7,842 nt of DNA. Source: a virus. Lineage: Duplodnaviria; Heunggongvirae; Uroviricota; Caudoviricetes. Position 1 is the stretch's first letter; each line of letters begins with the position of its first letter. Shown here in pieces: positions 2,852-7,842 of the stretch. Position numbers and translations under genes: made by a program. The notes under the pieces are model-generated. The model did no database searches. It had not been told where the DNA came from and was given only the letters and a program-made list of their open reading frames with translations. Location: IMG/VR virus record IMGVR_UViG_2541047931_000013. The stretch is one strand, 5' to 3'.

Positions 2852-3401
2852 ACCTGTCTTTTATGCCGGTCGCACTGAAATCTCTGTCATTAAATTCGAT
2901 GACATTCAGGTGCGCATAGTGAGTATCAACGGCGAGCCGTGGTTTGTTGGCGCTGATGTGTGTGCCGCGCTGGAAATCAGCAATGTTACTGATGCCGTTT
3001 CAGTTCTGGATAACGATGAGGTAATGACCCTAGCTTTAACCGAGGGTCATTCCGGTAAGCGTGGTGGTGCCAGAAGCTGGAATGTTGTCTCTGAATCAGG
3101 TTTCTACAAACTGATCGCCCGCAGCCGTAAAGCTTCCACACCAGGCACATTTGCGCACCGTTTCAGTAACTGGGTATTCCGCGAGGTGATTCCTTCAATC
3201 CGCAAAACGGGGGGTTATGGTGTTCCGTTTGCCATGCTGAATGATTTCAGTAAACGTCAGGCTGCATATCAACAGGAAGCCAGCAAACGCGGTTACAGGT
3301 TACAGCAATGCAAAGAGGCAAAAGATGCACTGGAACGAGAAGAGCGGGCGCTATGGCGTAAATATCAGCCTGATTTTCTGGAGGGTGAAAGCAATGTGTA
3401 A
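2844..3401 (+). CDS. Bro-N domain protein (phage antirepressor-like)
   Basis: VIKFDDIQVRIVSINGEPWFVGADVCAALEI...FYKLIARSRKASTPGTFAHRFSNWVFREVIPSIRKTGGY is the Bro-N signature. SD GGAGGTG lies 7 nt upstream. The ATG overlaps the previous stop. Confidence 0.75.
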   Translation: MRKPVFYAGRTEISVIKFDDIQVRIVSINGEPWFVGADVCAALEISNVTDAVSVLDNDEVMTLALTEGHSGKRGGARSWNVVSESGFYKLIARSRKASTPGTFAHRFSNWVFREVIPSIRKTGGYGVPFAMLNDFSKRQAAYQQEASKRGYRLQQCKEAKDALEREERALWRKYQPDFLEGESNV

Positions 3402-4431
3402 CGATCCGAACGTTACAGAAAGAAAAAGCGCCCCGTTGCTGGATAACAGGCAAAACAAAGGCGACCGGGATAGGTCGCCAGTGGGAACAAAGGAAATCAA
3501 ACGCATCGCCAACAATGCCAGATTTGCGGCTGGTGGGCAATGTGATCAGTGTGCTGGCTTGCTGGTGGGCTATTCCTGCTCTTTAGCATCGCCATACTGC
3601 GATGTTTTCCAGGTATGCGATTCCATTTTTGTGCGCCTGTACTCTTTTAAGAACTTCTCAAGGACAAACGCACATGGCGCAAATCTTTCCTGTTCTTGTT
3701 CGCTTACCGCATTTTTGCGTTGTTTTTTCCTGGATGAGGATAATTTCTTTAATGATTTGTCAGTCATCGTAGATACCTGTAACCCTGTGCGCCACAGTTC
3801 ACCGCACCACGGCGCTGGTGATGGTTACTCCTGCTCTTTGGCCTTCCGGCGCTGTTCATATTTTAATTTGCGTCCACAGGCATCTAAGACCCATGCGGAA
3901 AAATTAGCACTAGGATTAGTTAATTTTTCTTGTTCAACACTGGCATCAATCCCATCTATAAGCTCGTGCGGGAATCGAATATTTTTCTTTGCTGATTTGT
4001 TGTTTGTGTTTCCGCTAGACATTGGTACACCTCACTTAAATGGATTTGATGGGCGCACACAATACAGCAAAAAAAGTGAGAAGTTAAGTATTGACATGTG
4101 CGCACACATGATTTTAATCTGTGCGCACAGTTTGGGTTGCATTGCTCAAATTAAGCAACGCCCCGCAGTGCTCGCAACACATGCAGGGCGTCTAACCACC
4201 AACGATAGAAAGCGTATCGAGGTAGCTATGTTAAATCATACCACACACCCGCAAGGGCGGGACTCGCACAACCTGAATAAATACATCTGGCGTTTTATCG
4301 CCCTGAGCACCGCACAACCACGCGTAATACACATCGAGGCCGCCAGCGAACAGGAAGCCCGTCAGCAATCCCCGGCTGGCTGCGTGATGGTATTTACTGC
4401 CCGCATCCGTCAGGGGGAATACTATGCGTGA
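3394..4431 (+). CDS. alternative model: long + strand ORF (345 aa), possibly a shadow of - strand genes; mutually exclusive with the - strand small ORFs and with the 4228 start
   Basis: ATG at 3394 with SD GGAGGG 8 nt upstream, overlapping the Bro-N stop (ATGTGTAA). Frame open for 345 codons. The product is about 5% Cys and F/S/L-rich in its middle part, which looks like antisense translation of K/E/A-rich coding. Confidence 0.25.
   Translation: MCNDPNVTERKSAPLLDNRQNKGDRDRSPVGTKEIKRIANNARFAAGGQCDQCAGLLVGYSCSLASPYCDVFQVCDSIFVRLYSFKNFSRTNAHGANLSCSCSLTAFLRCFFLDEDNFFNDLSVIVDTCNPVRHSSPHHGAGDGYSCSLAFRRCSYFNLRPQASKTHAEKLALGLVNFSCSTLASIPSISSCGNRIFFFADLLFVFPLDIGTPHLNGFDGRTQYSKKSEKLSIDMCAHMILICAHSLGCIAQIKQRPAVLATHAGRLTTNDRKRIEVAMLNHTTHPQGRDSHNLNKYIWRFIALSTAQPRVIHIEAASEQEARQQSPAGCVMVFTARIRQGEYYA
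3445..3479 (-). terminator. putative Rho-independent terminator for - strand transcripts
   Basis: Perfect 7-bp GC-rich stem GGCGACC (3460-3466) / GGTCGCC (3473-3479) with 6-nt loop. On the - strand it is followed by UUUGUUUUG. No T-tract on the + strand side. Confidence 0.4.
3570..3767 (-). CDS. small basic protein (65 aa), paralog B of a tandemly duplicated pair; possible DNA-binding protein
   Basis: ATG at 3767-3765 with AGGT 7 nt upstream. C-terminal AKEQE shared with the 3825-4022 product. An interrupted inverted repeat CTGTG-CGC-CACAG (3785-3797) lies just upstream. Confidence 0.35.
   Translation of the reverse strand: MTDKSLKKLSSSRKKQRKNAVSEQEQERFAPCAFVLEKFLKEYRRTKMESHTWKTSQYGDAKEQE
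3825..4022 (-). CDS. small protein (65 aa), paralog A; putative ribbon-helix-helix-like repressor divergent from the replication operon
   Basis: ATG at 4022-4020 with GAGGTG SD 5 nt upstream. KNIRFPHELIDGID...NFSAWVLDACGRKL has a strand-helix-helix layout resembling CopG/Arc-type proteins. Candidate -10 TATTGT / -35 TTAACT on the - strand at 4059-4064 / 4082-4087. Confidence 0.4.
   Translation of the reverse strand: MSSGNTNNKSAKKNIRFPHELIDGIDASVEQEKLTNPSANFSAWVLDACGRKLKYEQRRKAKEQE
4053..4130. promoter_or_regulatory. back-to-back divergent sigma70-like promoters overlapped by palindromic operator-like sites
   Basis: + strand: -35 TTGACA (4091-4096), 16-bp spacer, -10 TTTAAT (4113-4118). Perfect palindromes TGTGCGCACA (4097-4106, in the spacer) and CTGTGCGCACAG (4119-4130, over the predicted start). 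Half-site GCGCACA at 4053-4059 overlaps the predicted - strand start. Confidence 0.5.
4228..4431 (+). CDS. small protein (67 aa), first gene of the replication operon; possibly Icd-like (unverified recollection)
   Basis: ATG at 4228 with SD GAGGT 4 nt upstream. Product MLNHTTHPQGRDSHNLNKYIWRFIALSTAQPRVIHIEAASEQEARQQ... has ordinary composition. Its stop overlaps the next start. About 100 nt downstream of the predicted + promoter. Confidence 0.45.
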   Translation: MLNHTTHPQGRDSHNLNKYIWRFIALSTAQPRVIHIEAASEQEARQQSPAGCVMVFTARIRQGEYYA

Positions 4432-4681
4432 TGAACGATTTATTCTTCTGGAGCAAAAATTCAGTGAAGCGCCAAAAAATGAAATTGATGCTCTTTTGCA
4501 TATCGCGAATATGCTAAAAGTAGCAACGTTCCTTATAGTTTCGAATCTGGAGCATGAAACGGCGTTAGATATACTGAACAGTGCTGTCGATTATTCTGAA
4601 TATATTGCCGAGGATAAATACAGGCAATTACCAGATTTGTTAGCCCATAAATATAAAGAAGAACCTCACACCGGGAAATAA
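4424..4681 (+). CDS. hypothetical protein (85 aa), low-GC
   Basis: ATG at 4424 with SD AGGGGG 6 nt upstream, overlapping the upstream stop. Sample lines hand-count at roughly 35-38% GC. No family recognised. Confidence 0.55.
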   Translation: MRDERFILLEQKFSEAPKNEIDALLHIANMLKVATFLIVSNLEHETALDILNSAVDYSEYIAEDKYRQLPDLLAHKYKEEPHTGK

Positions 4682-4683
4682 AC

Positions 4684-4986
4684 ATGAAGAAGATTAAATT
4701 TACTGGCTTAAATGCCAGCGGACAGACTCACCCGAAAATCAGGATCGGGGATATTTTCCGGGATAAATATGGTGACAGCGTGGTTATTAATTCCGTGTAT
4801 GAACGGCACATTACATACCGCCGCGCAGGGTACGACTATGACTGTGTGATGCCCGTTCATCAGTTCCGGCGTGATTTTTCACTGGTATGTGCAGCACCAC
4901 GCAGTAAGCCCACCAGTAAAGAGAAAGCACGGGCAAATATTCAGGTAATAAAGAACATGATTAACGCATTCAGGGGCAAGAAATGA
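4684..4986 (+). CDS. hypothetical protein (100 aa), low-GC; possibly DUF4222-like (unverified)
   Basis: ATG 2 nt after the upstream stop; weak SD GGGAA. Its stop overlaps the helicase start (ATGA). IGDIFRDKYGDSVVINSVYERHITYRRAGYDYDCVMPVHQFRRDF is vaguely familiar from small proteins next to island primase genes. Confidence 0.55.
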   Translation: MKKIKFTGLNASGQTHPKIRIGDIFRDKYGDSVVINSVYERHITYRRAGYDYDCVMPVHQFRRDFSLVCAAPRSKPTSKEKARANIQVIKNMINAFRGKK

Positions 4987-7109
4987 AACGCGCACCGAAT
5001 TTAAAGCACCAGCCGAAAGACAAAATGACGGAGGTGATTATCTTTGCGGGTAGTGATGCCTGGGCACATGCGAAAGAGTGGAGCGAATGGGCCGGAAAGC
5101 ATATTGCGGCAGATGATACACATCCAGTTATTCTTGGACCGGAACAACTGGCGAGTCTGGCAGACACGCAAATCATCGACAAAGGGCGCTATTACGTGCG
5201 CGTTTATCGTGCTGGTGAAATATCAGAGCAGCACCTTACACAGATAGCGACACTGCTTGCAGTGGCGGGTGTGAAGGAGGCGCGTTGCTACCGCAGCTTT
5301 GTTGATCAGCAGCCGGAGGACTGGACACCGCGCATGGCTGGACTGAAGGATGATGCGGAACGCGGTAACAGTCTGGTGATCAACCTTCCGGCGAAGACAA
5401 ATTTCACCGGAAATTATGATGACGAATTAAAGCCTCGTGTTGAAAGTCGCGTCGATGGTGTTTTCTGGGTAACGCCCAAAGTGGACAAGCAGTCAGGCGA
5501 AATTATCCGGCCTGAGACGTGGTTATGTTCTCCGCTTGAACTACTGGGAACAGGAACAATCGGCAAAGAGCATTACCGCGTGATGCGCTGGAAAAAACCA
5601 GCAAACCATGAGGTCATTACAATGGCGGTCCCGTGCGGAGGCATTGGTGACCGTGACGGCTGGCGGTTGCTGAAAGACCACGGCCTTAACGTGACGACCA
5701 ACGGCAAATACAGGGCTATCTTGGCTGACTGGATGCAGTTAAGCGGAAACCATGAGGAATGGCAGTTAAGCACAACAACGGGGTGGCATTTTGGTGCGTA
5801 CATCATGCCGGATGGTTCGATCATCGGTGAATCAGAGAAACCCATCCTGTTTACCGGAAAAACTGCCGCTGTTAATGGCTATTCCGTGGCGGGAACAGCG
5901 GAGGGCTGGCGCGATACCGTGGCACGGCTGGCTGGTGGTAATCCGTCCATGATGCTGGGTGTGGCGGTATCGCTATCTGCACCATTAATCGGGCTGGTGG
6001 GTGCTGACGGCTTCGGGGTTCATCTTTTTGAGCAATCATCAGCAGGTAAAACCACCACACAGAACATTGCATCAAGTTTATGGGGAGAGCCGGACGCGCA
6101 ACGGCTGACCTGGTACGGAACGGCGTTAGGTATCGCCAACGAGGCCGAAGCACATAATGACGGGCTGTTACCCCTGGATGAAATAGGCCAGGCCGGAAAC
6201 GCACGGGAGGTGTCCACGTCAGCCTATACGCTGTTTAACGGTTCCGGGAAATTACAGGGGGCGAAGGACGGCGGCAACAGGGAGATAAAACACTGGCGTA
6301 CGGTGGCAATCAGCACCGGAGAAATGGACGTTGAAACATTCCTCAAAACGGAAGGGATAAAAATTAAAGCGGGACAGCTTGTCCGTCTGCTTAACGTACC
6401 GATGGAAAAGGCCTCGCAGTTTCACGAATACAGCACCGGAAAGGCGCACGCAGACGCGTTAAAAGATGCCTGGACAGAAAATCACGGGGCGGCAGGTCGT
6501 GAGTGGGTTAAATGGCTGGCAGGCCACCAGCAGGAGGCAAAGGACGCGGTAAGGGCATGTCGCGAGCGGTGGCGCAACCTGATACCGGAGAGCTACGGCG
6601 AGCAGGTTCACCGTGTGGGGGAAAGATTCGCCGTACTGGAGGCCGCGCTTGTGCTTTCCGGTCATGTTACAGGCTGGGATGTTCAGGCGTGCCGTGATGC
6701 AGTTCAGCATAACTTTAATGCCTGGGTGAAGGAATTCGGCACGGGCAACAGGGAATTTAAACAGATGGTTGAACAGGCTGAGGCGTTTTTGTCGTCGTTC
6801 GGGTTCAGTCGATACCTTCCCTATCCAAACAGCGACGAGCGTGATTTACCGATTAAAGACCTTGCCGGATACAGAAAGGGGAGTATCAGAAACGAAGATG
6901 ACGAGTTCCGTTTTTACACGTTCCCGCATGTGTTTGAGGGTGAGATAGCACAGGGATTTAATCCGTCTCACTTTGCCCGCGCGTTGAGTGCAGCCGGAAT
7001 GCTGGAAGCGGGAGGCGACCGCCGTTACAAGAAAAAGGCGCTCGGCAGGATTGGCGGGAAGCAGCATATTTTTTACGTGCTGATGTTCCAGCCTGAAGCA
7101 GAAGATTAA
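4983..7109 (+). CDS. replication primase/helicase-like protein (P4 alpha-like / DUF927-type, SF3-type P-loop NTPase)
   Basis: 708-aa ORF at about 55-63% GC. Walker A-like FEQSSAGKTT (about 6021-6059) and Walker B-like LLPLDEIGQ (about 6160-6190). SD AGGGG lies 6 nt upstream. Overall resemblance to replication proteins of enterobacterial integrative elements. Confidence 0.85.
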   Translation: MKRAPNLKHQPKDKMTEVIIFAGSDAWAHAKEWSEWAGKHIAADDTHPVILGPEQLASLADTQIIDKGRYYVRVYRAGEISEQHLTQIATLLAVAGVKEARCYRSFVDQQPEDWTPRMAGLKDDAERGNSLVINLPAKTNFTGNYDDELKPRVESRVDGVFWVTPKVDKQSGEIIRPETWLCSPLELLGTGTIGKEHYRVMRWKKPANHEVITMAVPCGGIGDRDGWRLLKDHGLNVTTNGKYRAILADWMQLSGNHEEWQLSTTTGWHFGAYIMPDGSIIGESEKPILFTGKTAAVNGYSVAGTAEGWRDTVARLAGGNPSMMLGVAVSLSAPLIGLVGADGFGVHLFEQSSAGKTTTQNIASSLWGEPDAQRLTWYGTALGIANEAEAHNDGLLPLDEIGQAGNAREVSTSAYTLFNGSGKLQGAKDGGNREIKHWRTVAISTGEMDVETFLKTEGIKIKAGQLVRLLNVPMEKASQFHEYSTGKAHADALKDAWTENHGAAGREWVKWLAGHQQEAKDAVRACRERWRNLIPESYGEQVHRVGERFAVLEAALVLSGHVTGWDVQACRDAVQHNFNAWVKEFGTGNREFKQMVEQAEAFLSSFGFSRYLPYPNSDERDLPIKDLAGYRKGSIRNEDDEFRFYTFPHVFEGEIAQGFNPSHFARALSAAGMLEAGGDRRYKKKALGRIGGKQHIFYVLMFQPEAED

Positions 7110-7132
7110 CTTCCCTGTGTGAGGTAAAAAGT

Positions 7133-7257
7133 TGCGGGTTATGCGGGTTATCCTGTGCATAAGTTAATTAACTGAATGATTAAAAAGGAAATTAATAACC
7201 CGCACGTAACCCGCAAAACGGCAGTTATAACCCGCAAATGTGCGATTGTAACCCGCA
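7133..7257. repeat. iteron array around an AT-rich core; putative replication origin
   Basis: 9-mer TGCGGGTTA twice in tandem (7133-7141, 7142-7150). Its reverse complement TAACCCGCA four times (7196-7204, 7207-7215, 7228-7236, 7249-7257; spacings 11, 21, 21 bp). The AT-rich stretch 7151-7195 between the two sets contains the palindrome GTTAATTAAC. Confidence 0.55.
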
Positions 7258-7319
7258 AAATTTCACTGTAAGAGTGTAAACAAGCGTAACTATCACGTTA
7301 AAACCGGAGAACAAACAGC

Positions 7320-7748
7320 ATGACGGCGCAAATATCAGCTTACGGGCGGCTGGTGGCTGACCCGCAGTTAAAGACCACCAGCAAGGGCACACAAATGGCG
7401 ATGGCGAGTATGGCGGTCCCCCTTCCATGCAATCAGACAGATGACGGAACGGCGACGATGTGGTTATCCGTCCTGGCGTTTGGCAGACAGGCTGACGCAC
7501 TGGCAAAACACCACAAAGGCGAACTGGTGAGCGTGGCCGGTAACATGCAGGTGAGCCGGTGGACGGGCCAGAACGGCGAAACGAGGCAGGGATGGCAGGT
7601 TATCGCAGACAGCGTAATCAGTGCGCGAACGGCGCGACCGGGCGGCAAAAAAGGCCAGCAGGGGCAGGCTACTGATGCACTGAACAGGGCAAAGCAACAG
7701 ACAGGCCAGCACGATGATCTGAACCGCCCCGGGAATCCTGGAGACTAA
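7320..7748 (+). CDS. SSB-like (OB-fold single-stranded DNA-binding) protein, 3' end disrupted by IS insertion; native sequence ends at 7719
   Basis: AYGRLVADPQLKTTSKGTQMAMASMAV...WLSVLAFGRQADALAKHHKGELVSVAGNMQVSRWTGQNGETRQGWQV matches the SSB OB-fold pattern. SD GGAGA lies 9 nt upstream. From codon 134 the ORF reads into the IS inverted repeat and stops at 7746-7748. Confidence 0.7.
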   Translation: MTAQISAYGRLVADPQLKTTSKGTQMAMASMAVPLPCNQTDDGTATMWLSVLAFGRQADALAKHHKGELVSVAGNMQVSRWTGQNGETRQGWQVIADSVISARTARPGGKKGQQGQATDALNRAKQQTGQHDDLNRPGNPGD

Positions 7749-7842
7749 ACTTCCTGAGAAAGAGGTAAACAGGATGACTAAAAATACTCGTTTTTCCCCC
7801 GAAGTCCGTCAACGGGCAGTCCGTATGGTTCTGGAAAGTCAG
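7720..7842 (+). mobile_element. left end of an IS3-family insertion sequence (IS629/IS1203-like), continuing beyond the window
   Basis: Starts TGAACCGCCCCGGGAATCCTGGAGACTAAAC, which I recall as the IS629 left inverted repeat. orfA begins 54 bp in. Exact identity is from memory and unverified. Confidence 0.75.
7774..7842 (+). CDS. IS3-family transposase OrfA, N-terminus only (truncated by window end)
   Basis: Translation MTKNTRFSPEVRQRAVRMVLESQ is a typical IS3-family OrfA helix-turn-helix N-terminus. SD AGAGGT lies upstream at 7761-7766. Confidence 0.8.
   Translation, partial: MTKNTRFSPEVRQRAVRMVLESQ

Follow-up and report, generated by a model that had tools for sequence, protein, structure and literature searches.

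An AT-rich cassette gene and a core rgdR orthologue upstream of the replicase in the probable early operon of an Escherichia coli PICI

RgdR (ECs1581 in E. coli O157:H7 Sakai, C1493 in CFT073) is the only characterised DUF4222 protein (PMC3378721). The published protein has 99 aa and a pI of 10.09, and its relatives in EHEC and UPEC are transcription co-regulators that increase LEE1 expression, decrease motility and bind DNA weakly and non-specifically, phenotypes that were obtained by expression from plasmids in EHEC and UPEC (PMC3378721). Residue 20 alters RgdR activity in a context-dependent manner (PMC3378721), and the RGD motif is conserved in EHEC and not family-wide (PMC10877973). RgdR has been reported in all analysed E. 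coli PICIs. In Gram-negative PICIs, the operons have AlpA as master activator, and an arrangement of pri-rep followed by the ori has been described (PMC6092414). A cloned fragment of the prototype EcCICFT073, described as ‘rep gene and putative ori’, confers replication on a plasmid, the presence of rgdR on this fragment being unstated (PMC6092414).

The window analysed here, the whole stretch of 7,842 nucleotides, matches islands of avian and extraintestinal E. coli strains at 99.8-100% identity, with 99.9-100% for the chromosomal islands of SCU-105 and GF4, whereas the work on RgdR was carried out in EHEC and UPEC. The element is found essentially unchanged in dozens of sequenced E. coli genomes. 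We consider it likely, with a probability of about 80%, that the window represents an early operon, activated by AlpA, of a PICI from E. coli, in which the 100-aa gene (ORF100) is the core gene rgdR and the 85-aa gene (ORF85) is a cassette of a variable array. The features that bear on this reading are the following:

Positions 1124 to 1342, + strand: alpA-type HTH regulator gene (Pfam Phage_AlpA with E=6e-6, which passes the cut-off; the GF4 locus, 100% identical, has it annotated as an AlpA family regulator)
Positions 4228 to 4431, + strand: Icd-like gene, 67 aa (NCBIfam NF033153 phage_ICD_like, E=3.5e-19)
3' end of the Icd-like gene with its Shine-Dalgarno sequence, + strand: left linker, where homology to CFT073 and 03_3503 runs as far as 4417
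Positions 4424 to 4681, + strand: ORF85, 85 aa, a small gene of family D (PHROG 24341, E=5.2e-17; PHROG 2512, E=1.3e-16; neither with an assigned function)
Positions 4659 to 4683, + strand: right linker, formed by the last ORF85 codons (...KYKEEPHTGK and the stop) and the spacer before rgdR (blastn and DNA alignment)
Positions 4684 to 4986, + strand: ORF100, rgdR orthologue, 100 aa, pI 10.2 (DUF4222; SH3/Tudor-like barrel and C-terminal basic helix)
Positions 4983 to 7109, + strand: Pri-Rep replicase, DUF927 primase/helicase, 708 aa (Pfam DUF927, E=1e-46; PHROG 1139 DNA primase, E=4e-174)
Positions 7124 to 7269, no strand given: putative replication origin, with TAACCCGCAA iterons, four of them direct and two or three inverted, 3' of pri-rep

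The genes of the window are arranged in the order alpA, antirepressors, two antisense YlcI/YnfO genes, the Icd-like gene, the small-gene array, rgdR, pri-rep, ori and ssb, and all genes 3' of alpA lie on the + strand except the two YlcI/YnfO genes. Two features of Gram-negative PICIs are present, namely an AlpA regulator with a co-directional operon, and pri-rep followed by an iteron-containing putative ori; we infer that the TAACCCGCAA iteron region is the origin. The SCU-105 and GF4 islands encode int, AlpA, antirepressors, an Icd-like protein, a hypothetical protein, DUF4222 and DUF927 proteins, SSB, ProQ/FinO and PerC. Their integrase gene adjoins tRNA-Gly in SCU-105 and yicC in GF4, such that the same block is found with different integrases and attachment sites; the window itself ends short of the integrase. 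The 19-25 kb that were read contained no phage structural genes; beyond that stretch lies the far end, which has large hypothetical cargo genes. Across the whole window, Rfam gave no match at E <= 0.1 (a C4-like antisense RNA ahead of the Icd-like gene was among those sought), and no promoter-like or terminator-like site was found on the + strand within 4424-4986.

The prototype EcCICFT073 shares with the window the order alpA, small genes, rgdR, pri-rep, ori iterons, ssb and perC (PMC6092414). Furthermore, its Icd-like protein is 95% identical, and the same array includes a homologue from family D with 38% identity. In contrast to the window, where the array consists of one gene, EcCICFT073 has four (families B, C, D and E); it also has another class of replicase, and the window has extra antirepressor genes. 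The replicase 3' of rgdR is of the DUF927 type in the window, RepA in O157 and of the P4 type in CFT073. The architecture of the window is also that of the capsid-encoding islands of O157 and 03_3503.

A first-pass annotation of this DNA had singled out ORF85 and ORF100 as a low-GC pair, coupled to its neighbours at both ends, inside a GC-richer replication operon. The two ORFs and both overlaps were confirmed: the ATG of ORF85 at 4424 lies before the TGA of the Icd-like gene at 4429-4431, giving an 8-nt overlap, and ORF100 and the 708-aa DUF927 gene overlap in the ATGA at 4983-4986, while 2 nt lie between ORF85 and ORF100 (TAA AC ATG). The proposed GC content of ~35-38% for both genes held for ORF85, which at 37.2% (GC3 32.6%) is the lowest among the coding stretches of the window, but not for ORF100, which at 45.5% (GC3 50.5%) is unremarkable. 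The estimates for the flanks also needed correction, as the Icd-like gene has 55.4% GC rather than ~50% and the helicase 53.6% overall rather than 55-63%; the whole window has 49.0%. A sliding-window analysis, which had been suggested as a check, showed a trough from ~4440 to 4700 that corresponds to ORF85 only and leaves ORF100 outside. By percentile rank, ORF85 was at the 4.5th percentile of all 258-nt windows, ORF100 at the 27th of 303-nt windows, and the combined stretch 4424-4986 at the 9th. Only the non-coding DNA upstream of alpA was equally low in GC (window starts 667-983). Homologues of ORF85 have 43-45% GC (GC3 35-44%), and genes of families E and G have 40%.

ORF100 scored 65.2 bits against Pfam DUF4222 (PF13973; cut-off 27), with residues 17-68 aligned to model positions 1-52 of 53. 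Over 98 aa it is 65% identical to the RgdR locus protein of O157 TW14359 and 64% to C1493 of CFT073, and beyond near-identical copies its identity to other proteins is at most 87%. Like RgdR, it has ~100 aa, a pI of ~10, the same Pfam domain, 64-65% full-length identity and conserved core residues 20-68, and its gene lies directly 5' of, and overlaps, a PICI replicase gene. Unlike RgdR, it has a one-residue insertion near the N-terminus and IGD at residues 20-22 in place of the name-giving RGD motif, which matters for T3S activation; other PICI RgdR alleles have RGD, HGD, NGD or PGD at these residues. Because of this replacement, and because residue 20 matters in a context-dependent manner, the regulatory activity of the window's RgdR may differ or be absent. 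The earlier description of both genes as having no known function thus applies to ORF85, which belongs to an uncharacterised family, whereas the function of ORF100 is not wholly unknown because its family, RgdR/DUF4222, has been characterised (PMC3378721, PMC6092414).

In 11 of 11 related loci, rgdR was found directly before the replicase gene, whatever the replicase type (DUF927, RepA or P4/D5). This constant position suggests that rgdR is a core PICI gene and not an insert, ‘always’ here referring to the examined loci together with the statement in the literature. Narrow DUF4222 patterns detected 2 loci among GTDB species genomes, and the established range comprises Escherichia, Shigella and Salmonella. 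The overlap of the rgdR stop with the replicase start was 4 nt long (ATGA or GTGA) in all 11 loci; since it is kept in every locus, translation of Pri-Rep is probably coupled to that of rgdR. The first ~120-160 aa of Pri-Rep constitute a domain common to RepA-type and P4/D5-type PICI replicases, with 42-62% identity between types over ~125-166 aligned aa. We propose that RgdR would modulate host transcription rather than replication, in a host background that we take to be LEE-negative. One possibility is that RgdR is a Tudor/KOW-like factor that binds RNA polymerase, which, if true, would explain its pleiotropic transcriptional effects.

ORF85 encodes an acidic protein (pI 5.1) with three helices (residues 2-12, 20-39 and 44-78 in the AlphaFold2 model, pLDDT 88.8), and its predicted fold is a generic three-helix bundle. 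The family recovered grew with the depth of the search, from 2 near-identical fragments in a word-index search to 11 representatives in a full HMMER scan and 243 clusters, in E. coli and Salmonella, in a profile search. Aligned members are 31-47% identical to ORF85 and share nine invariant columns (M1, D3, R5, F6, L9, A23, L51, Y57 and R67). Beyond near-identical copies, ORF85 is at most 51% identical to anything, and no other member seen is as AT-rich or as diverged; at the level of megablast it is carried by 46 of 5426 E. coli genomes, and PGAP annotates it as WP_001336359.1. PHROG 24341 aligns over its full length with residues 1-68 of ORF85, and PHROG 2512, which corresponds to a 154-aa C-D fusion found in O157 and 03_3503, aligns with them over its C-terminal half; unlike both, ORF85 bears a foreign C-terminal tail from family E. 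With the ORF85 model as query, Foldseek found no match below E=0.4 in PDB or BFVD, profile searches of the ORF85 and RgdR families against PDB sequences gave chance-level matches only, and no Pfam family was found for the array genes of families A-G, ORF85 included. An origin or iterons inside the AT-rich ORF85 were also considered and rejected: the sequence holds just short two-copy chance repeats, and the iterons sit 3' of pri-rep.

We examined by hand what lies between the Icd-like gene and rgdR in 11 loci, corresponding to about 9 distinct islands. This interval forms a variable array that contains 1-4 genes from at least 7 small-protein families, mostly acidic and helical; in the window island, ORF85 is its sole occupant. 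Homologues of ORF85 were always located within this interval in the examined loci. In three loci (L003, L004 and L007) ORF85 was missing and another small gene filled the slot; one of these, L004, has a helicase 5' part 100% identical to that of the window, yet a different slot gene and an RgdR with only 53% identity. The question of whether related elements lack the two genes, raised by the first-pass annotation, therefore receives a divided answer, with ORF85 absent from three loci and ORF100 retained in all.

At the DNA level, homology to other PICIs ends at 4417 and restarts at 4659-4664 (blastn and DNA alignment). The Icd-like gene is 88-90% identical to those of CFT073 and 03_3503 up to 4417, its part of the window has matches in more than 1000 E. 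coli genomes, and its 3' end contains the Shine-Dalgarno sequence CAGGGGGA at 4411-4418. The right linker is homologous to the tail of an unrelated gene, a member of family E, found just before rgdR in O157, CFT073 and 03_3503, and residues 71-85 of ORF85 share 60% identity with the final 14 residues of a 77-aa protein of O157. The breaks in DNA homology at 4417 and 4659 thus argue that ORF85 is an exchanged cassette, and, as judged by sequence comparison, it is a chimera of a diverged AT-rich D body and the tail of a family E gene. We propose that recombination in two conserved linkers would swap the cassettes, with the 3' end of icd and its Shine-Dalgarno sequence as the left linker and the last ~25-45 nt of any gene preceding rgdR as the right one. 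ORF85 itself would be an early accessory protein, dispensable and acting through its binding to a protein of the host or of the helper phage.

The first-pass annotation had suggested that the pair was acquired separately, which fits ORF85 with its deviant GC, its breakpoints at 4417 and 4659 and its patchy occurrence, but not ORF100 with its ordinary GC and its presence in every locus. In its full form, that of one horizontally acquired two-gene module inserted in the replication operon, for example for interference or anti-defence, we regard this explanation as quite unlikely, even though several observations speak for it. The nearest relatives differ by segment, being CFT073-like at the Icd-like gene on the left and XJ6.1-like at the helicase on the right, with 4418-4983 different from both; since this stretch has its own closest relative, ORF85 and ORF100 do form one mosaic block in the window island. 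Between an Icd-like gene with ~90% identity to CFT073 and a helicase with 100% identity to XJ6.1, ORF85 has no DNA match and rgdR matches at 50-80%, both alleles are distinctive at the protein level, ORF85 is AT-rich, and RgdR alleles seem linked to the type of the upstream gene (family A with HGD, family E with RGD). However, rgdR occupies the same place in every related island, and there was thus no insertion there but allele replacement at most. Furthermore, the DNA of the ORF85 3' tail and rgdR is 74-77% identical to other PICIs, which puts the right edge of truly foreign DNA inside ORF85 and not after ORF100. The interference or anti-defence role, which ORF85 may still have, was likewise not supported: PADLOC defence-protein models (E <= 0.1) gave 0 families for ORF85, ORF100, the Icd-like and both YlcI-like proteins, the ORF85 model had no informative fold match, and tblastn against 50,697 phage records found no match for ORF85 or ORF100.

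The other role that had been suggested, a replication accessory pair, was weakened as well, and we consider it unlikely that the two proteins assist Pri-Rep, for example as origin-binding factors or a loader adaptor. Such a role would explain the tight translational coupling, as both genes lie directly 5' of pri-rep and the ATGA/GTGA overlap is kept in all loci; RgdR binds DNA weakly (PMC3378721), and the N-terminal domain common to all replicase types after rgdR is a possible partner for it. However, the L004 island lacks the ORF85 family beside a helicase 5' end identical to that of the window, which argues against a replication role for ORF85. For RgdR, divergence was uncorrelated with that of the replicase N-domain (Spearman rho 0.13, p 0.43), and the recombination joint lies exactly at the gene boundary, with the helicase 100% identical to XJ6.1 from 4984 onward. 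The cloned rep and ori fragment of EcCICFT073 makes a plasmid replicate, its rgdR content being unstated (PMC6092414), and the known RgdR phenotypes are transcriptional. That ORF85 is no gene at all, but merely an AT-rich spacer open by chance, is extremely improbable: although it is short, without a Pfam family and of a composition atypical of E. coli coding DNA, it belongs to a conserved family with invariant residues in 243 clusters, its fold is confidently predicted, a good Shine-Dalgarno sequence (GGGGGA) lies 6-12 nt 5' of its start, the start overlaps the preceding stop, and PGAP calls it as a gene.

We therefore return to ORF100 as a core rgdR gene and ORF85 as a cassette. Because ORF100 is a fixed core RgdR orthologue and only ORF85 is swappable, the finding is mostly ordinary: ORF100 is orthologous to a published PICI regulator, and ORF85 is catalogued in an uncharacterised family. 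As a tentative and rather doubtful extension, the stretch from the Icd-like gene to rgdR may be a dedicated cassette array of the PICI early operon, a repertoire for host takeover, helper manipulation or counter-defence comparable to the anti-defence gene clusters of phages and plasmid leading regions; if so, ORF85 would be a new small protein inhibitor. The array with its defined linkers provides a concrete candidate set for proteins of satellite-helper or satellite-host interaction. Moreover, the finding that rgdR adjoins every replicase type and assorts independently of it, together with its SH3/Tudor-like fold, narrows the hypotheses for the mechanism of a virulence-relevant regulator.

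The two small genes that the first-pass annotation had read as an insert in the replication operon lie where it had placed them, and their coupling at both ends is borne out by the coordinates and overlaps of the reading frames:

3570-3767 and 3825-4022, minus strand: antisense YlcI/YnfO genes
4228-4431, plus strand: Icd-like gene (stop TGA 4429-4431)
4424-4681, plus strand: ORF85, 85 aa (stop TAA 4679-4681)
4684-4986, plus strand: ORF100, 100 aa, starting 2 nt past the ORF85 stop
4983-7109, plus strand: DUF927 replicase (the helicase, pri-rep), 708 aa

The ORF85 ATG at 4424 sits 8 nt within the end of the Icd-like gene, and the stop of ORF100 shares an ATGA at 4983-4986 with the 708-aa gene's start codon. 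A purine-rich run resembling a Shine-Dalgarno sequence lies before each of the starts (ORF85, ORF100 and the 708-aa gene; CAGGGGGA, CCGGGAAA and CAGGGGCA), and no promoter-like or terminator-like sites were found on the plus strand within 4424-4986. Overlapping or abutting reading frames are chained in a co-directional block downstream of alpA. Termination-reinitiation would carry translation from the Icd-like gene through ORF85 and rgdR (ORF100, see below) into pri-rep, and replicase synthesis would hence depend on the upstream frames. A single plus-strand frame, open for 396 codons (3241-4431) from the end of the BRO-N gene into the Icd-like gene, crosses both antisense genes and also spans ~140 'intergenic' codons before the Icd-like gene. 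Translated, it reads as repetitive, Cys-rich sequence with CSCSL motifs; it matched no Rfam family, and annotators elsewhere have called 135-157-aa, even 477-aa, 'Icd-like' proteins from it.

Chromosomal islands matching 4100-5100 at 99.9% identity occur in 46 of 5426 complete E. coli genomes, many of them of poultry or extraintestinal infection origin, and 4400-5600 matches strain GF4 at 100% identity. The twin islands of SCU-105 and GF4 are annotated in the order integrase, hypothetical, AlpA-type HTH, antirepressors, two antisense YlcI/YnfO genes, Icd-like, hypothetical (ORF85), DUF4222 (ORF100), DUF927, SSB, ProQ/FinO and PerC, after which come large cargo genes. A Pfam scan of the window (AlpA, AntA, BRO-N, DUF4222, DUF927, SSB) agreed with this annotation; the Icd-like gene was identified by an NCBIfam scan, and the 708-aa protein matched PHROG 1139 (DNA primase). 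EcCICFT073, the prototype of the Gram-negative phage-inducible chromosomal islands (PICIs), shares this architecture, as do the capsid-encoding islands from O157:H7 and 03_3503. Upon helper phage induction AlpA activates the PICI operon, and the replicon consists of pri-rep and ori (PMC6092414). Consistent with this layout, a TAACCCGCAA repeat cluster lies just past the helicase at 7124-7269, in the AT-rich gap before ssb, with four direct copies (7195-7258, part at 21-nt spacing) and two or three inverted ones (7132-7151); these iterons are probably the island's replication origin. The Icd-ORF85-rgdR-DUF927-ssb block is 99.3-99.8% identical across islands with different integrases and attachment sites, adjoining tRNA-Gly in SCU-105 and yicC in GF4, and the antirepressor and YlcI cassettes also vary among these two islands and the window. 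A GAG to TAG change relative to SCU-105 (2447-2449) cuts the AntA/AntB antirepressor gene, 274 aa in SCU-105, into ORFs 2108-2449 (113 aa) and 2468-2851 (127 aa); the GF4 slot holds a quite different GIY-YIG gene. The final ~125 nt of the window (7716-7842) are 99% identical to the end of the IS629 (IS3 family) found in many Stx phages, and homology to the twin islands ends at 7719. Thus, an IS seems to have inserted within the last ssb codons, its DNA replacing the ssb 3' end.

The compositional break was confirmed for ORF85 (~4440-4700) but not for ORF100. ORF85 has a GC content of 37.2% (GC3 32.6%), at the 4.5th percentile among all 258-nt windows of the stretch, where only the non-coding DNA upstream of alpA is as AT-rich; ORF100 has 45.5% (GC3 50.5%), at the 27th percentile of sliding windows. 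The earlier values, 35-38% for the two small genes and 55-63% for the helicase, were wrong, the helicase being at 53.6% (GC3 56.7%), the Icd-like gene at 55.4% and the whole window at 49.0%.

We read 11 related loci: SCU-105 and GF4 (near-identical twins), 03_3503, JNEC-KY174, XJ6.1, CFT073, O157 TW14359, Shigella flexneri, E. albertii, two metagenome/assembly contigs (counted together below as L008/L009) and one Salmonella contig. In 11/11, a DUF4222 gene (frameshifted in JNEC-KY174) immediately precedes the replicase and overlaps it by 4 nt (ATGA or GTGA), irrespective of whether the replicase is a DUF927 protein, a RepA-family helicase or a P4/D5-type primase. By this conservation rgdR is a core gene, not part of an insert. 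A domain of ~120-160 aa at the N-terminus (TEVIIFAGSDAW...) is common to the three replicase classes at 42-62% identity, and past it they are unrelated; the domain matched no Pfam family and always follows rgdR (window 4983-5462; L002, one of the 03_3503/O157 TW14359 pair, 5255-5707; L005, CFT073, 5464-5952). From locus to locus, RgdR divergence did not correlate with that of this domain (Spearman rho 0.13, p 0.43, for pairs that are not independent). In XJ6.1 the helicase is 100% identical from 4984 onward and RgdR just 53% identical. Recombination therefore falls exactly at the rgdR-replicase junction, and there is no pairing of particular rgdR alleles with particular replicase alleles.

ORF100 scored 65 bits against Pfam DUF4222 (cut-off 27) and aligns over 98 residues with the O157 TW14359 protein (65% identity) and with C1493 (64%); its pI is 10.2, and on these alignments we assign it as rgdR. 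Among DUF4222 proteins only RgdR (ECs1581; 99 aa, pI 10), encoded in O-island 51 of O157:H7, has been characterised. It is an activator of the LEE1 promoter and type III secretion and a repressor of motility, with weak, non-specific DNA binding, and its CFT073 orthologue C1493 has the same activities (PMC3378721; PMC10877973). Residues 20-68 form a core nearly invariant among RgdR alleles; the RGD of EHEC RgdR is IGD in ORF100 and HGD, NGD or PGD in further PICI alleles. In an AlphaFold2 model (pLDDT 73), the strands of a five-stranded SH3/Tudor-like barrel fall within residues 24-69, and a helix comes after them at 79-97; such a Tudor/KOW-like fold would be in keeping with RNA polymerase or nucleic acid as a binding partner. 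By analogy with EHEC and UPEC, RgdR would most likely act as a small basic co-factor altering host transcription. A distant DUF4222 gene (3441-3725; 32% identity) lies beside a primase-like gene on the 10,790-bp E. coli 'plasmid' NZ_CP148328.1 (PLSDB), which may be an excised circular satellite assembled as a plasmid.

The interval between the Icd-like gene and rgdR, where ORF85 homologues were always placed in the loci read, holds one to four genes from at least seven families, which we label A-G (ORF85 being D).

Genes between the Icd-like gene and rgdR
Window and twin islands: D
XJ6.1, E. albertii: A
JNEC-KY174: A + B-like
03_3503: C-D fusion + E
O157 TW14359: F + C-D fusion + E
CFT073: B + C + D + E
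Shigella flexneri: C + D + E
L008/L009: C + F + D + G
Salmonella contig: at least D, directly before rgdR

Family D occurs in 8/11 loci and is missing beside a helicase with a 100%-identical 5' part, and is thus common but dispensable. CFT073 has C and D as two overlapping genes of 73 aa apiece (L005 4492-4927), but O157 and 03_3503 have a single 154-aa frame (L002 4263-4727; L011 3833-4297), reflecting either natural gene fusion/fission or different start calling. Array genes are AT-rich in general (D homologues 43-45% GC, GC3 35-44%; families E and G ~40% GC), and the window's D allele is the extreme. The Icd-like gene is 88-90% identical in DNA to CFT073, 03_3503 and O157 up to 4417, a breakpoint in the Shine-Dalgarno sequence 7 nt before the ORF85 ATG; homology returns at 4659-4664, in the last ORF85 codons, and from there extends across rgdR and into the N-domain of the replicase at 74-77% identity. 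Since the ORF85 tail (...KYKEEPHTGK) is homologous to that of the unrelated family E protein preceding rgdR elsewhere (...RYKEQHTGE), ORF85 is a chimera of a diverged D body and a conserved linker before rgdR.

These breakpoints bear on whether ORF85 and ORF100 were acquired together as one module. Block 4418-4983 is a single mosaic block with distinctive alleles, which lends the proposal some support, but it fails on the universality of rgdR and on a right-hand breakpoint within ORF85; among the loci read, related elements lacking the gene exist for ORF85 (XJ6.1, E. albertii and JNEC-KY174 carry A instead) but not for rgdR. A replication-accessory pair, also suggested initially, is disfavoured by XJ6.1, which lacks D beside the identical helicase and carries the divergent RgdR, by the lack of co-divergence between RgdR and the replicase N-domain, and by the reported replication of a clone with the EcCICFT073 rep gene and putative ori (PMC6092414, which does not state whether rgdR was on the fragment). 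For an interference, defence or anti-defence role there was no positive evidence, a PADLOC search giving no match.

ORF85 itself matched no Pfam family; its two PHROG matches, to 24341 and to the C-terminal half of 2512, are to families with no assigned function. An exhaustive HMMER scan returned 11 representatives, and a profile search 243 clusters, all E. coli or Salmonella, of ~73-77 aa or, with an added N-terminal domain, ~144-149 aa. Nine alignment columns are invariant among sequences 31-47% identical to ORF85. It is a new, diverged member of a catalogued yet uncharacterised family. AlphaFold2 folds this acidic protein (pI 5.1) with confidence into a bundle of three helices (pLDDT 88.8), and fold and sequence searches of PDB and BFVD gave no meaningful match. 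ORF85 would most likely be a dispensable early accessory protein acting by binding a host or helper-phage protein, a general mechanism to which we give a probability of roughly 0.4, any specific target being much less probable. This reading draws on its small, acidic, all-helical and allelically diverse character, its presence or absence between otherwise identical replicons, and the recombination linkers on both sides.

We found no description of the cassette-array organisation of the Icd-rgdR interval and its linkers in the literature searched. The family of ORF100 has been published, as has its occurrence among E. coli PICIs, and the cassette array represents mosaicism of a kind expected for satellites.
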